Shown here: in pieces, positions 2,883 to 29,843 of the stretch
Position numbering within the stretch: position 1 is the first letter of the stretch
How the letters are laid out: each line of letters starts with the position of its first letter
Notes under the pieces: generated by a model
Seen by the model: only the letters and a program-made list of their open reading frames with translations
Database searches by the model: none
Told to the model about the DNA's origin: nothing
Position numbers and translations under genes: made by a program
DNA from: a virus
Strand: one strand, 5' to 3'
DNA length: 29,843 nt
Virus record (IMG/VR): IMGVR_UViG_3300045988_044226

Positions 2883-3377
2883 CTACGCTTTTGGGACGAA
2901 CTTCACGTCCTCGGTGCCGAGGCCAGTCACGGTGCCCTCAACGGGGTCGCCGTTCAGGCTGATGGTGAACGTCAGGATGCCGTCAACGGTGTTCAGCGTG
3001 TCTCCAACGACGGTCGCCTCCTGCCACATGAGCGCCTTTGTGGCCTCCCCAGTCTCCACGTCGGGTCGCACGAACAGGAACGGAACCTTGGCCGCGCTGC
3101 CCACGGGGAACGAGTTCAGGTATTCGTCCATGAACTTGTACAGCGGGTTGTCGCTCTCCAGCGCGATTTCCTGCGGAAGCTCGGGGGCGTAACCCGTCAC
3201 CTCGTTCGTGTCGTTCTTGAAGCAGATGTACGACTTCGTCTCGGTGTTGGGGTTGTAAGCCAGCTCGAACTGCGTTGACAGGTCGATGGGCACCCACTTG
3301 AATGTGCCCTCGCCAGCGCTCGCTCCCTTCAGCGTGTCGATGAGCGGTACGAACAGGTTTCGCGTCAACTGTGCCAT
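2883..3377 (-). CDS. major tail protein
   Basis: The start is taken at the internal ATG at 3377 (MAQLTRNLFVPLIDTLKG…), which abuts the upstream gene stop at 3380. About 165 aa. The position and the beta-rich sequence are typical of siphovirus major tail proteins. Confidence 0.55.
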   Translation of the reverse strand: MAQLTRNLFVPLIDTLKGASAGEGTFKWVPIDLSTQFELAYNPNTETKSYICFKNDTNEVTGYAPELPQEIALESDNPLYKFMDEYLNSFPVGSAAKVPFLFVRPDVETGEATKALMWQEATVVGDTLNTVDGILTFTISLNGDPVEGTVTGLGTEDVKFVPKA

Positions 3378-19566: not shown

Positions 19567-19645
19567 CCTCTTTCCCGCCAATTCGCACCTCCTTTCAAGG
19601 GTTCCCCCCTCCGATTTCTCTGGAGGGGGGTGTCGTCCTCGGAAC

Positions 19646-20143
19646 CTACTTCACCTGAAGGTTCTGGCTGACCTCCAAGTGAGCGCCGGCCACCTCGCGG
19701 CCAGCCTTCAGCGCCTTGGCGATTTCGGTCTTGTTCACCTTCACGGTCACGACCTTCTCGGTGAACTCCTCGGGCACAGCGGCCTCGTCATCGACGATGG
19801 TTCGCGTTGACTTGCGCGTGCCGAGCGCGACCATCGGCGTTTCCAGCTTCTGCTTCGGCGTTTTCAGCAGGCAGCGCAGCACGTACCCGTTCATGCGCTC
19901 CAGACGCTTCTCGATTGCCTTGCGGCGATCGTACAGCGCCTTCTCCTCTGCTCTGATAGCGTCAGCGAGCGACTTCTGGTTCTTCATCCAGATTCCGCAG
20001 GCCTCCAGCTTCTCGTCGAACGCGACCTGAAGCTGCTCCAGGTCGCCCTCCTCGAACAGCACCTCGCCAGTCTCCTCGTCCCACGAGAAACCCGTCTCGA
20101 TTACCTGCTCGATTGCTCGGTCGATTTCGTAAAGCGTCGCCAT
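19646..20143 (-). CDS. Sipho_Gp157-family protein
   Basis: Start MATLYEIDRAIEQVIE… with a GGAGGAG RBS. The coiled-coil pattern …EEKALYDRRKAIEKRLERMNGYVL… is characteristic of the Gp157 family. Confidence 0.5.
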   Translation of the reverse strand: MATLYEIDRAIEQVIETGFSWDEETGEVLFEEGDLEQLQVAFDEKLEACGIWMKNQKSLADAIRAEEKALYDRRKAIEKRLERMNGYVLRCLLKTPKQKLETPMVALGTRKSTRTIVDDEAAVPEEFTEKVVTVKVNKTEIAKALKAGREVAGAHLEVSQNLQVK

Positions 20144-25184: not shown

Positions 25185-25988
25185 CTACTCGACAAGCTCC
25201 CAGTTGGCGGGCACCACGTCGGGCGCGTAGGCGTTCCAATCGACCTTGGAGCGGTACACGGGGCTGTCGGCGTTCGGGTAGTGGCGCAGCTCCCCCTTTC
25301 TCACGGAGTCGTACTGCCCGTGTGCCGCGCGGTAGACGATGATGCCGTCGGGCGCGATGACGATTTCGTAGTAAAGCGCCTCCGAAACGTCTGGCGGGTA
25401 GATGCTCTGGCTCGTGGTGTTCTGCGAGGCTCGCCACGTGCGCTTCTCCCACTGGAACGCGTCGCCCTGCTTGTACTCGTGCCCGTCGGGCACCCAGTCT
25501 GGCAGCAGCGTGCTCACCTCGGCGATTTCAGTCTCGCTCTCGAACTCCAGCGTGGCGACATGAGCGCGTGCGGCCATGATGTTGTAGGTCTGGAGCTGCA
25601 TCGCCTGACGTGAGGCGTACTCGGCCTCTTGGCGCTGCTTCTCGCGCTCCTCCAGTTCCTCCTCGGTGTACGGATGGTAGATGACGTACTCGAAGATGTC
25701 TGGCACGGGCACGTCGTGAGGCCAATCGTCGCTGAGCGTGCCGTCGAAGTCAGAGACTTCCTCGCCTTCGCCGTCCGTCGTCCTCCAGTGCCCCTGCTCC
25801 TCTGCGGTGACGCGCCACTCAACGTCCTTGCCGCCAGTCTCGGGGTACTCCTTCAGCGTGACCCACTTGCCCTGCTCCTCGGAATCGACCACCCATCGGT
25901 GCTCCACGGCCTCGCTCTTGTTCTCCAGATAGCCCTTGTCGAGGTCGTATTCCTCGATTCGGTGCCCGCTCTCGTCGTACACTACCAT
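25185..25988 (-). CDS. hypothetical acidic protein downstream of the tail fibre gene
   Basis: 267 aa with no recognisable motif. Positioned between the tail fibre and the lysis genes. Confidence 0.4.
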   Translation of the reverse strand: MVVYDESGHRIEEYDLDKGYLENKSEAVEHRWVVDSEEQGKWVTLKEYPETGGKDVEWRVTAEEQGHWRTTDGEGEEVSDFDGTLSDDWPHDVPVPDIFEYVIYHPYTEEELEEREKQRQEAEYASRQAMQLQTYNIMAARAHVATLEFESETEIAEVSTLLPDWVPDGHEYKQGDAFQWEKRTWRASQNTTSQSIYPPDVSEALYYEIVIAPDGIIVYRAAHGQYDSVRKGELRHYPNADSPVYRSKVDWNAYAPDVVPANWELVE

Positions 25989-26023: not shown

Positions 26024-27505
26024 CTATGCGGTTCTGCGCCAAGCATACAGAGTCTGGTACGCGGGCATGTTGTTGTGCGATTTCCCGTTGCCGAGGTACA
26101 CCAAGAGAAAATTCACGTACGGCGAGCCCTGCGTGAATGCGGACGTGTAGAGTTTTTCATTGAGACCCGCGTTGGTGTTGAAGCTATTCGACGTGTATAC
26201 AGAGACCTTTGGAAGCTCGCCGACTGTTAATTCGTGTGTGTTTGAACCACCCGTGGACGTGCCAGCGTTGAAGTACGGGAATCGTCCCGTGATAGGTGTC
26301 CACGTTCCGCCAACGATGCCAGACGGAGACGTGTTCGTGTATGACATCCACACGTATCCGACCATGAACACGTTGTCCAGCAGCCACTTCTTGATGCCGA
26401 GGTTGTTCAGCGCACTCGTGCCAGATGTGCCGCCAGTGCCGCCCTGCGCGATTGGCAGGATGCCGAACGACGGCTCGGCGTTAGCGCCAGTCGCGAACAT
26501 CGCGCCGTTCGCGGTCGCCTTCTGCTTCACCGCACCAGTGCCGTTGCCGAGCAGCACGGCGTTTGCATTCAACGTGGATGCGCCAGTGCCGCCGTCGGCC
26601 ACGGGGACGACGGAACTCGAATCGTAGGTCTGCACCCACGCGCCAGCGCCAGCCCTGCACCATCTCGAGCCGTCAACCGCGTCGATTGCCTCTTGCATCA
26701 CGGCGCTGCCGACCGCGTGGACGAACAGCAGGAACGGGTTCGCAAGCCCGCTGGGCTTGTTCTTGATGCCCGCGACGTTGCCAGCTACCGAGCAGCCGTA
26801 GTTGCCCACGGTCTTGTACTTGTTCAGGTCTGCCGCAGCTGGAATCTCCGTCTCCACTCGCAGGCTCCTGCGGTACTTCTGGAGGTTGCCAGCCGTCGTG
26901 CCGTCGAGCGCATTGTTCATCGCGTCGACGGCATCCTGCGTCGCCTGCTTCAGCTGCTCGAACAGCGTTGTCGTGTCGAACTCGACGAACGGTGTCACCG
27001 CGCCGCAGCGCTGCGTCTCCAAGCGTGTGTCGCTGATTCGGCCTTGGCTGATGGTCGCTATGCCCTTCGGCAGGTACACGTCGGCGAGGCCTAGCTCCCA
27101 CACCGTCTCGTTGCGCGTGAGGTTCGGGCGCACGGGGTCTTCGGCGGGCGTTCCCTTCAGCACGTACAGGTCGAGCGAACGAGCCTCGATTGCGAGGTCG
27201 AGGCGGGCGACGATGGTGTCGATTCGGTCGAGGCTCGCGCTCGCAGCGTCAAGCTGCAACGTCCTCTGCTCGGTCTCCACTCCGAACGCTCCGTTGATGT
27301 GGCACGTGCCAGCCTTCACGTACACGTTCATGCCGCCCGTTGCGTTCATAACCTGAAGCGACGTGCTGTCGTCCATGAACACGCCGTTGCTGAAGAAGTT
27401 GGCGTACACCTCGCGCAGGTCTGCGCTGACGTACGGACGGTCGTAAATCGGCAGGCCGTCTTCGCCGAGCTTCGTCACGATGCTGTCTACTGGGAACACC
27501 TTCAT
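26024..27505 (-). CDS. tail fibre or receptor-binding protein
   Basis: 493 aa. It contains two copies of the tail-fibre motif P(V/I)A(D/Q)GGTG…T..N(A/N)LG and a Gly/Ser/Thr/Asn-rich C-terminal region. It follows the Dit and Tal genes. Confidence 0.55.
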   Translation of the reverse strand: MKVFPVDSIVTKLGEDGLPIYDRPYVSADLREVYANFFSNGVFMDDSTSLQVMNATGGMNVYVKAGTCHINGAFGVETEQRTLQLDAASASLDRIDTIVARLDLAIEARSLDLYVLKGTPAEDPVRPNLTRNETVWELGLADVYLPKGIATISQGRISDTRLETQRCGAVTPFVEFDTTTLFEQLKQATQDAVDAMNNALDGTTAGNLQKYRRSLRVETEIPAAADLNKYKTVGNYGCSVAGNVAGIKNKPSGLANPFLLFVHAVGSAVMQEAIDAVDGSRWCRAGAGAWVQTYDSSSVVPVADGGTGASTLNANAVLLGNGTGAVKQKATANGAMFATGANAEPSFGILPIAQGGTGGTSGTSALNNLGIKKWLLDNVFMVGYVWMSYTNTSPSGIVGGTWTPITGRFPYFNAGTSTGGSNTHELTVGELPKVSVYTSNSFNTNAGLNEKLYTSAFTQGSPYVNFLLVYLGNGKSHNNMPAYQTLYAWRRTA

Positions 27506-28536
27506 CGCGCCATCGCCCTCCTCATGTTCGTAATCCTCTTGCTACCGAACCCCAATTGTACGCTATGCCCCTCTGGCTTGAACACCTCAGTGACCTCCAC
27601 GATGCGCGTCTCCAGCTCCAGACCGATGTCGTCTAGAATCACGCTCACCTTGTCGCCGAGGTCGAAGTCCTCCAGATAGTTCGCGTCTCCGAGGTTCGAC
27701 ACGTCGATTTCCTGCGCCACAACGCAGTCAGCCAGCTTCTCCAACGCCTCCTGCCTCAGAGCCGCCTTGAAGTCCTCCTCGCTCTGGTCTTCCTCTGGTG
27801 CCTCGCTGCCCTTGTCCAGAAACACCTCGTACCGCTCGCCGCCGCCGCTCAAATCGACCTCGAACTGCAACGCCTCGTCCTTAGCCGACACCTTGCATAC
27901 GTTGGCGTACGCGGAGCGGTCGATGGAGATCTCCTCGTCCTCCACGTTGCCGAACGCCGAGCTGAACACGCACCACGGGTTTGCGTCCTGCGACTGCGTT
28001 CTGTCGATGCCCTGCCAAATCTGGCACACTAGCCCGCTGAAGTCGTCAAGCGCCGTCACCCTGTAGCTCAGCTCTCGCGTCTCCAGAATCGAGTACCACT
28101 TCTCGCCGAGCAGGTCGCCGATGAAGTCGCACTGCGTCCTGTCGCCGAGCGGCTGCTCGTTGGCCTTCCAGCCGATGCCCTTCTTGGCCTGCACCCCGAA
28201 CGTGTCGTACATGCGCTTTATGACGTTCTCCGTCTTGCTCAGGTCTGCGACGAAGCGCGGCGATGCCACGATGCCGTTCAGCCTCTGCTCGGCGAAGAAC
28301 CCCGACAGCTGCACCAGCTTCTCGCCGCCGTTGTTCGTGTACTGGAGCTTCTGCACAACGCCGACCTCTGGGCGGTCGTGCGTCATGATGTACGCCCAGC
28401 TCGGGTCGTACACGTCTGCGGAAATCTGGATGCTGAAGTCTCCAGCATCGTAGTACTTTCGATTCCACTGCAAGTTGAAGTACGGGATTGCGGCTGTCAC
28501 GAGGCCGAACTTGTCGTCAAGGCCGTAGACCTCCAT
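27502..28536 (-). CDS. tail-tip protein, Tal-like N-terminal domain
   Basis: 344 aa between the Dit gene and the fibre gene. See the G9 tract and upstream ATG at 28567 for uncertainty about the true start. Confidence 0.45.
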   Translation of the reverse strand: MEVYGLDDKFGLVTAAIPYFNLQWNRKYYDAGDFSIQISADVYDPSWAYIMTHDRPEVGVVQKLQYTNNGGEKLVQLSGFFAEQRLNGIVASPRFVADLSKTENVIKRMYDTFGVQAKKGIGWKANEQPLGDRTQCDFIGDLLGEKWYSILETRELSYRVTALDDFSGLVCQIWQGIDRTQSQDANPWCVFSSAFGNVEDEEISIDRSAYANVCKVSAKDEALQFEVDLSGGGERYEVFLDKGSEAPEEDQSEEDFKAALRQEALEKLADCVVAQEIDVSNLGDANYLEDFDLGDKVSVILDDIGLELETRIVEVTEVFKPEGHSVQLGFGSKRITNMRRAMAR

Positions 28537-28543
28537 GGAGCCA

Positions 28544-28552
28544 CCCCCCCCC
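28544..28552. repeat. homopolymeric tract, C9 on plus and G9 on the coding strand, just 5' of the tail-tip gene start
   Basis: Read directly as ccaccccccccccg. It separates an out-of-frame ATG with a strong SD at 28567 from the listed start at 28536. Confidence 0.9.
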
Positions 28553-28576
28553 GTCGAACCAGTTCATTCTTCCTCC

Positions 28577-29461
28577 CTAGATGCCGAGATAGCGCTTCCA
28601 GTAGTAGAGCGACACGGACATGACGTTCTCGCCCGAATCAGCGTCGTACTCGAACGTCGTGTCGCCCGCCTCGATTTGGAACGACGTGAACGAGCTTGCT
28701 CGGTCAACCTTGTTTATCGCGTTCTGCCCGTTGAGCGTCACCCTAGGCGGCCGCTGCTCGAAGTCGATTACCAGCTCGTCCTTCTGCTGCAACGTGCCCA
28801 CGAAGCGCACGAACTTGTCTCCGATGCTGATTCTCGGGTTCTCCACCGTGCCGTCTGCTCTGATAACGACCCTCGGGAACGTCGTAACGTCGCCGTCGTT
28901 CTGGATGTCCACCGTCCTGTTGAAGTCGTACACGCCCATGACGAAACCGCGCTTGTACACGCCTGCTGGCGTGCTCTGCACGACCGAGTGGTACGGGAAG
29001 CCGAACTTCGCCGTGATGAACGCCACGTCCTTGCCGAAGTTGTCCTCGCTCAGCAGGTACGGCATCGGGCACAGTATCGTCCAGTCGAACGTCACTGGCT
29101 GGTAGATGTTGCCCGTCTCGCACTTGAACGCGTACTGCTCGCCAGCACACCACAGCGTGCGCCCCTGATACGTCAGGTGCGCCTCGTACGTGTGCTTCGG
29201 GCTGAAGAACCTGATTGCCTCCAGACGCTTCTCCGCGTTGTCGGCTGGGTTCGCAAGCTCCGCGTGAACCGAGCGGTCTACCGTCTCCACTCGCTTGTTC
29301 GTGACGACACCGCCGTCATAGCTCGCGTTCTCCTGCACCGAGACCGAGTGCGGAAGGTTCGCCCAGTTCTCCAGCCCGTCGTTCGGAATCATCCAAACCA
29401 CGTTGTCGATGTCGAACTCCAGACCGTCGTCTCTCACGATGTGGAGTATGACTTGCTCCAT
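28577..29461 (-). CDS. distal tail protein, Dit-like
   Basis: 294 aa immediately downstream of the tape measure protein, with an AGGAGG RBS. This is the conserved position of Dit in siphoviruses. Confidence 0.5.
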   Translation of the reverse strand: MEQVILHIVRDDGLEFDIDNVVWMIPNDGLENWANLPHSVSVQENASYDGGVVTNKRVETVDRSVHAELANPADNAEKRLEAIRFFSPKHTYEAHLTYQGRTLWCAGEQYAFKCETGNIYQPVTFDWTILCPMPYLLSEDNFGKDVAFITAKFGFPYHSVVQSTPAGVYKRGFVMGVYDFNRTVDIQNDGDVTTFPRVVIRADGTVENPRISIGDKFVRFVGTLQQKDELVIDFEQRPPRVTLNGQNAINKVDRASSFTSFQIEAGDTTFEYDADSGENVMSVSLYYWKRYLGI

Positions 29462-29557: not shown

Positions 29558-29843
29558 TTACACGTACGAACCCGCGAGTCCGTACCGCTGCTGCAAGCGC
29601 ATCGTCCGCGCAACTTGGTCGGGGCTTTCCACGGGCTGGTTGAAGTTCACCGTCTGGTAGTTCGTCGTGCCGCCAGCGCCTTCGAGCGCCTGCGCCTGAA
29701 CGCTCAGGCGGGACACGCCGACGTTCAGGTCGCGCTCGATTGATGCCATCGGGTCGTTCTTCTCCCATCCGACCGCCACGCCATCCGCTAGGTACTTGCC
29801 TACCTCGTCGCGCATGACCTTGGACGGCGAGGCGATGCCGAAG
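29558..29843 (-). CDS. tape measure protein, C-terminal part; same ORF as 1..1783 after circularisation
   Basis: The listed ORF 29558..29815 (MRDEVGKYLADGVAVGW…) stays open upstream to the window end, and its frame matches the minus-strand frame at 1..1783. TAA stop at 29558. Confidence 0.6.
   Translation of the reverse strand, partial: FGIASPSKVMRDEVGKYLADGVAVGWEKNDPMASIERDLNVGVSRLSVQAQALEGAGGTTNYQTVNFNQPVESPDQVARTMRLQQRYGLAGSYV
29767..29843. repeat. second copy of the 77-bp terminal overlap
   Basis: Exact match to 1..77. Confidence 0.9.

Follow-up and report, generated by a model that had tools for sequence, protein, structure and literature searches.

A length-variable G tract within a lineage-specific insertion precedes the conserved Tal start of an uncultured human-gut siphovirus

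Introduction

Simple-sequence repeats (SSRs) are widespread in phages, intergenic cases included (bioRxiv 10.1101/2025.10.21.683753). In phages T2 and T4, contingency loci formed by A-runs in agt and rIIA inactivate and restore the gene and are selected by host defences (Gomez, Barrick and Waters, bioRxiv 10.1101/2025.10.21.683753). In the Campylobacter phages of the Fletchervirus group, as related in citing papers (PMC11959909, PMC12823448, PMC10877375), hypermutable polyG tracts inside the frames of receptor-binding proteins (RBPs) diversify the RBPs that are expressed. In licA (lic1) of Haemophilus influenzae, CAAT repeats shift upstream initiation codons in and out of frame (PMC2212159). 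Here, we analyse a run of nine Gs (G9) on the minus strand of IMG/VR virus record IMGVR_UViG_3300045988_044226 (29,843 nt, the whole of which is hereafter called the window), which lies at the junction between the genes for the tail proteins Dit and Tal.

Overlapping upstream open reading frames (uORFs) and translational coupling are ordinary at phage structural gene junctions. The reading that we favour for the present junction, with a probability of about 0.68, is that the unstable G run lies in an insertion, that a Shine-Dalgarno (SD) sequence formed by its 3' end would drive Tal in every length state, and that changes in length would toggle between an extended Tal isoform and a uORF, with no OFF state.

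Results

The G tract varies in length among near-identical genomes

On the minus strand, the junction reads ...GGCATC TAG GGAGG AAGA ATG AAC TGG TTC GAC GGGGGGGGG T GGCTCC ATG GAG GTC TAC..., in agreement with an earlier note on this DNA, which had described the Dit stop codon, a GGGAGG motif, an ATG at 28567, the G9 run, the Tal ATG at 28536 and a 16-aa peptide opened by the first ATG. The two ATGs are out of frame because they are 31 nt apart, and since TGA at 28566-28564 closes the Tal frame, there is no in-frame start 5' of 28536. In the G9 state, the uORF covers the first 6 Tal codons and ends 17 nt past the Tal ATG. The tract is the longest homopolymer of the 29.8-kb genome, followed by T7, C6 and G6. 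A G9 run arises in 16 of 100 dinucleotide shuffles, so that its existence alone is not significant; it is its position, together with its behaviour in relatives, that makes it non-trivial.

To describe this behaviour, junctions were collected from 40 independent, adequately covered human-gut assemblies, the window included, with tract lengths taken as assembly-level calls. The comparison of the junction in related phages, which the earlier note had proposed, uncovered G9 in 14 assemblies (the window and 13 others), G10 in 12, G8 in 10 (8 of them fetched deliberately via their 354-aa proteins), G13 with a T>G change in one, T+G8 in one and an interrupted, out-of-frame G4AG5 in 2, plus 2 low-coverage contigs, while G7, G11 and G12 were found in none of the assemblies. 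The exact flanking haplotype of the window occurs with G8 (L058-60), G9 and G10, and the 20 closest relatives, which differ by 6-48 substitutions over ~4 kb, have no indel other than the tract. On a neighbour-joining (NJ) tree of Dit and Tal DNA from which the tract was excluded, the tract states call for a minimum of 17 changes. For the 22 genomes that diverge from the window by no more than 1%, the minimum is 9, compared with a mean of 10.0 for permuted labels, so that there is no phylogenetic signal; the tract therefore behaves as a hypermutable repeat among near-identical genomes. The locus thus combines a repeat of unstable length (about 8 or more for G/C runs) with recurrent length differences among near-identical genomes, both being hallmarks of SSR contingency loci. 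As read from these assemblies, the G9 tract appears to be a genuinely length-unstable simple-sequence repeat, real and not a private miscall.

The earlier note had also considered a 1-nt homopolymer miscall, and more generally a single true length (e.g., G8, with a plain 354-aa Tal) could have been blurred into G9 and G10 calls by technical error. Homopolymers are error-prone, and Logan assemblies tend weakly to yield G10 (Fisher p = 0.065, or 0.11 with more data). Nevertheless, G9 and G10 recur in as many independent assemblies as listed above, produced by MEGAHIT, SPAdes, Logan and JGI pipelines; G10 calls come from MEGAHIT, SPAdes and Logan alike, and G8 lineages stay G8 across pipelines. 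On one and the same Tal core, 196 blocks of the public collection contain the 344-aa form, against 5 with the G8 fusion. The nearest cluster of proteins at 90% identity, which has 983 members, mixes 344-aa and 354-aa forms. Substitution variants in or beside the tract (G4AG5, T+G8, G8-C and G13 with T>G) are signs of real evolution, whereas the error-ridden contigs L027 and L028 (~1.3-1.5x coverage) have 1-nt deletions throughout and not at the tract alone. We therefore regard an artefact as very unlikely and, in view of these recurrences, reject a miscall as the reading of the window's G9.

The interrupted form was seen in L008, L011, L023, L027 and L028, where the tract reads GGGGAGGGGG-TT and the upstream ATG is permanently out of frame. 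G4AG5 contains a perfect GGAGG, 10 nt from the Tal ATG, and to judge from its sequence the interruption stabilises the tract.

The tract arrived with a 28-nt insertion

The Tal gene of L025, whose product is 92% identical to that of the window, is preceded by TAA GGAGG TGGCTCG ATG, compared with TAG GGAGG [28 nt] TGGCTCC ATG in the window, and the two align with one clean 28-nt gap. The insertion is also missing from all relatives at 76-85% identity (L003-L006 and L026). In the insert-less relatives, the SD stands directly before the Tal start, 9-11 nt after the Dit stop, as in the junctions TAA GGGGGAAGC GTG of L003, TAG GAGGATCGA ATG of L005 and TAG GGGGGCACCGC ATG of L006. Given that L025 and the more distant relatives all lack the 28 nt, the window lineage carries an insertion between an ancestral GGAGG and the ancestral spacer and start codon. 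The motif just after the Dit stop of the window (SD1; Table 1) matches in position the SD that serves Tal in L025, L003, L005 and L006 and, on this comparison, SD1 is taken to be the ancestral SD of the Dit-Tal junction. No donor of the insert was found elsewhere in the window (at up to 4 mismatches in 21 nt). A partial duplication of Tal was considered as the origin of the insert and rejected, the likeness of MNWFD to MNIYALD, the N-terminus of some homologues, being too weak.

Table 1. Features of the Dit-Tal junction in the window.
Feature	Position	Strand	Remark
Dit gene, 294 aa	28577..29461	-	stop TAG 28579-28577
SD1, GGGAGG	28577-28572	-	now 4 nt 5' of the new ATG
28-nt lineage-specific insertion, AAGAATGAACTGGTTCGAC+G9	28544..28571	-	27 nt in the G8 state
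Upstream ATG	28567-28565	-	opens the uORF or, with G8, the extended Tal
uORF, 16 codons, MNWFDGGGWLHGGLRP in the G9 state	28517..28567	-	stop TGA 28519-28517
G9 homopolymer	28552-28544	-	hypermutable tract
SD2, GGGGGTGG, 3' end of the G run + TGG	28541..28548	-	putative ribosome-binding site of Tal
Tal / baseplate hub gene (Sipho_Gp37 family), 344 aa	27502..28536	-	conserved start ATG 28536-28534

The 3' end of the G run is a candidate ribosome-binding site for Tal

The last five Gs of the tract and the following TG (GGGGGUG) fall exactly where L025 has GGAGGUG, with 7 nt between core and ATG; the insert-less L025 has the same position and spacer (GGAGGTGGCTCG-ATG). GGGGGUG pairs with 16S 3'-CCUCCAC-5' with one G.U wobble. 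Since no close prophage identifies a host (see below), pairing energies were predicted with a generic anti-SD. With this generic 16S tail, the duplex 16-22 nt before the Tal ATG reaches -18.0 to -18.7 kcal/mol, the second strongest value among 42 crude gene starts of the genome, compared with -15.9 kcal/mol in L025 and -10.8 kcal/mol for SD1 at the upstream ATG. G-run SDs also precede Tal in the relatives L006 (GGGGGG) and L003 (GGGGGA). Collectively, these features lead us to infer that GGGGGUG (SD2) acts as the SD for the Tal start at 28536. The earlier note had paired a strong ribosome-binding site at the upstream ATG with nothing but the G run at Tal; the predicted ranking is the reverse (about -18 for Tal vs -10.8 kcal/mol), and the GGGGGUG stands at the ancestral 7-nt spacing.

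A variant of the site was observed in L001 and L055-L057 (locus ~3016-3030 and 1516-1530), where C replaces T after the tract (G8-C-GGCTCG). In this sub-lineage, in which G8 is seemingly fixed, the predicted SD2 pairing falls from about -15 to -11.5 kcal/mol. To judge from predicted pairing, initiation in these genomes may have shifted to the upstream ATG.

Both junction proteins belong to a tail-tip module, and the downstream Met is the family N-terminus

Dit matches Pfam SPP1_Dit (3.2e-14) and the PHROG 'distal tail protein Dit', and the relatives have the gene order tape-measure protein (TMP), Dit, Tal. Tal matches Pfam Sipho_Gp37 (PF14594) with E=8.7e-35 and 120.8 bits against a cut-off of 26.2, its residue 19 aligning with profile position 18. 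A solved homologue of Tal was sought by sequence and none was found; structure prediction and fold search were used for this reason. An AlphaFold2 model built on a 354-aa relative of Tal (predicted local distance difference test, pLDDT, 88.5; predicted template modelling score, pTM, 0.83) retrieved with Foldseek probability 1.0 the Tal chain of the 80alpha baseplate (6v8i), Mu gp44 and Listeria gp18, that is, gp27-like hubs, as well as the NF5 tail-associated lysin. The label 'Tal-like' of the 344-aa protein is thus supported by profile match, gp27-like fold and TMP-Dit-Tal order. Among isolates, the nearest protein is 27% identical (Acutalibacter phage Fontainebleau); the junction had no megablast match among 50,697 records of isolated phages, and a search of 185,579 reference genomes yielded no close prophage, the best identity being 31%.

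A search of a large protein database with Tal returned 172 homologues. Relatives at up to 84% identity are 344-346 aa long and share the N-terminus ME[VIL][YF]GLD, and 49 of the 62 aligned homologues begin at the same Met, M[EDN][VIL][YF][AG]LD. In the AlphaFold2 model, the first beta-strand begins 2 residues past this native Met. Removal of one G in silico yields MNWFDGGGGS-MEVYGLDD, the N-terminus of the natural 354-aa relatives P0001, P0126 and P0130, so that the prediction of the earlier note that a G8 tract would fuse the upstream ATG to Tal is borne out by natural G8 genomes. The MNWFDGGGGS extension is predicted to be disordered (pLDDT ~43). About a dozen other homologues in the 62-sequence alignment carry independent N-terminal extensions of 1-10 residues, and a 10-residue extension is therefore plausibly tolerated. 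Within the G8 fusions, the frame coding for the extension shows 2 non-synonymous (N2D and W3R) and 2 synonymous changes, too few for a test of constraint. The predicted N-terminal peptides that tell the two forms of Tal apart are MEVYGLDDK and MNWFDGGGGSMEVYGLDDK.

If the upstream ATG is used, as its functional-looking SD, in the same position as the Tal-driving SD of relatives, would allow, the ribosome (+1 on G9, -1 on G10) or RNA polymerase might slip on the tract, whose successive GGG glycine codons are slippery by nature, and in every genotype a fraction of the upstream product would then be fused to Tal. However, tract length is not conserved, and the interrupted, out-of-frame G4AG5 lineages argue against a requirement for such recoding. 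Frameshift sites are expected to be conserved, whereas no relative at 92% identity or below has the insert. The mRNA fold of the junction is no better than that of shuffles (z=0.29) and an Rfam search with it gave no match, which leaves neither structured coupling nor a frameshift stimulator with support. Finally, the family N-terminus is the downstream Met, and the strong SD and ATG just downstream of the tract make recoding unnecessary. Programmed recoding is thus, in our view, highly improbable.

Out-of-frame tracts prevail in the window clade

Across the out-of-frame states, the point at which the uORF terminates lies 17-40 nt inside Tal; in genomes with G10, G13 or G4AG5, the upstream ATG opens a uORF of 23-24 codons. 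In samples unbiased by start calls, in-frame tracts were found in none of 10 Dit-anchored cases and in one of 15 overall (binomial p ~0.02 against one third). The lengths common in the window clade, G9 and G10, form an adjacent out-of-frame pair; in-frame G8 is rare, G11 was never seen, and some lineages have out-of-frame states locked by substitution (G4AG5 and T+G8). As most tracts are out of frame, stabilised forms included, expression of Tal cannot depend on the upstream ATG. Three sub-branches of a more divergent clade, one of them with the G8-C variant, consistently have G8 in samples from independent people; G8 thus appears fixed there, so that Tal with the extension, or at any rate the G8 genotype, is viable. 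The in-frame depletion in the window clade hints, without proving it, that the frame may be under selection. The exact 493-aa and 267-aa downstream proteins of the window, looked up in order to enlarge the unbiased sample, are not on record.

One interpretation of this pattern is an adaptive contingency locus, in which slippage itself is selected and toggles extended and native Tal, or tunes Tal dosage via the uORF, thereby diversifying infectivity or assembly across hosts. The hypermutable tract, the length of which is uncorrelated with phylogeny, would fit such a locus, as would the apparent importance of the frame: in-frame lengths are depleted in the window clade, yet G8 dominates other sub-branches, and G11 is missing though G10 is common. 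Precedents exist in the polyG tracts of Fletchervirus receptor-binding genes and the contingency loci of T-even phages. Against it, Tal itself remains the same whatever the tract length, the added residues are few and predicted to be disordered, and no phenotype is known; a valued switch would not be expected to become locked by substitution, as in some lineages here, the genome has no second long tract, and SSRs are reported to be under-represented in infection proteins (preprint, bioRxiv 10.1101/2025.10.21.683753). On balance, we consider an adaptive locus rather unlikely. The stronger proposal of a bona fide contingency locus of new architecture, in which poly-G would be both the SD of Tal and the spacer to an acquired start, toggling native Tal with a uORF (G9 and G10) against extended Tal (G8), is in our judgement unlikely. 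If it were true, frame-dependent selection (depletion of G8 and G11) would mean a fitness effect on tail assembly or infection, and the switch would be the first of its kind in an uncultured human-gut siphovirus and the first to act on Tal and not on a receptor-binding protein.

Other features of the genome

In the public collection, exact matches to the Dit protein of the window occur in 336 blocks and those to the Tal protein in 196. No exact record was obtained there for the 493-aa Gp10_C-domain protein (26024-27505, minus strand) and the 267-aa protein (25185-25988, minus strand; its start call may differ), which follow Tal. In relatives, the versions downstream of Tal have 493, 494, 497, 442 or 277 aa. 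The sequence record suggests that the receptor-binding module downstream of Tal may be the fast-evolving part.

Positions 1-77 of the window are identical to 29767-29843 (a direct terminal repeat), and alignments to loci from relatives run through the ends of the window. The window thus represents a whole genome of ~29,766 bp that was assembled as a circle, with an assembly overlap of k=77. The relatives are contigs of 28-30 kb. The plus strand is asymmetric in composition (C 10,327 vs G 7,978; GC 61.3%), and essentially all long open reading frames (ORFs) lie on the minus strand, in a single orientation. The second-longest homopolymer of the genome is A7 on the gene strand (T7 on the plus strand, 11131-11137), which lies in the 23-nt overlap of a 500-aa ORF (12609-11107) and the next ORF (start 11129), right before the ATG: gaaagaaaaaaacATG. 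A strong intergenic hairpin at 19601-19633, CCCCCCTCC-N9-GGAGGGGGG, holds the only other 6-nt C and G runs of the genome; it lies between minus-strand genes ending at 19646 and starting at 19581 and may be a terminator or a regulatory stem-loop.

Discussion

The features of the junction can be accommodated in a simple scenario. A 28-nt insertion between the ancestral SD and the ancestral Tal start would have introduced an ATG 4 nt downstream of the existing SD and, at the same time, would have brought a G run to the place of the old GGAGG, 7 nt before the Tal ATG. Presumably by replication slippage, the run would then move among G8, G9 and G10, and rarely to longer states. The 3' end of the run, being fixed relative to the Tal ATG, would serve as SD2 and yield the 344-aa Tal in all length states, and a change in length would alter only the frame of the upstream ATG. 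With G8, the upstream ATG, driven by the ancestral SD, would give Tal with 10 additional residues, MNWFDGGGGS, predicted to be disordered, and with G9, G10, G13 or G4AG5 it would open a uORF of 16-24 codons overlapping the Tal start. No tract length disrupts the Tal ORF, SD2 or the start codon, and an OFF state is therefore not expected. This bears on the slipped-strand phase-variation switch that the earlier note had envisaged for the tail tip: the variable site is real, as G8, G9 and G10 on one haplotype attest, but ON/OFF switching of the tail tip does not follow from it. Most likely, the toggle is a nearly neutral by-product that is tolerated, the frame being under some selection; an adaptive role of the tract is unproven.

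Several points weigh against this scenario. The evidence consists of sequence and of tract calls at the assembly level, and some G9 and G10 calls could be within-sample mixtures or homopolymer error, the trend of G10 towards Logan assemblies pointing in the same direction. Resolution is low in the tree of near-identical genomes, and recombination might make state changes seem more numerous than they were. The anti-SD energies come from a generic 16S tail that may not be that of the host, and a very strong SD can also slow initiation. Finally, the rarity of G8 and the lack of any G11 in the window clade suggest selection on the frame, which fits a nearly neutral toggle less well.

In this widespread gut phage, the locus has practical implications, too. 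Database calls of 344 or 354 aa for the same protein depend on tract length alone, and annotators could wrongly 'repair' G9 to G8. If SD2 acts as proposed, a small insertion in a translation-initiation region is tolerable when it brings its own SD-like G run. If the tract flips at a high rate in vivo, it would represent a gut-virome contingency site beyond Campylobacter phages and T-even coliphages, present across dozens of people.

The described systems resemble this locus to different extents. With the Fletchervirus tracts, as far as the citing papers portray them, it shares a poly-G run in a tail or host-interaction module of a phage, the slippage-variable length of which alters the product. 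The phages are unrelated, however, and here a single long tract of the genome lies 5' of the conserved Tal start and would double as an SD, leaving the ORF always intact; the frame of the downstream Gp10_C-domain protein has no long tract, such as the polyG inside RBP frames of Fletchervirus. The contingency loci of T2 and T4 are likewise SSRs, of at least 6 nt, subject to high-rate reversible polymerase slippage; here, the run consists of Gs and lies where translation of an essential structural gene starts, and an OFF state is not predicted. The likeness to ordinary coupled junctions consists in a short ORF that opens from a good SD and ends just inside the next gene. In contrast to such junctions, the uORF exists in some length states only, originates from a recent insertion and is not conserved in sequence, and the mRNA of the junction yielded no occluding structure for coupling to relieve. 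The closest mechanistic analogue is licA, in which the repeat also lies between the upstream start codon(s) and the body of the ORF, as it does here with respect to ATG 28567. All licA starts, however, are 5' of the repeat, so that one frame is OFF, whereas here a second, conserved start with its putative SD stands 3' of the repeat, so that Tal production is predicted in all three frames; moreover, the repeat is a mononucleotide G and not a tetranucleotide CAAT, and would itself form the downstream SD. By the defining features tested, the tract is neither a Fletchervirus nor a licA system but a simple-sequence variable site in a phage.

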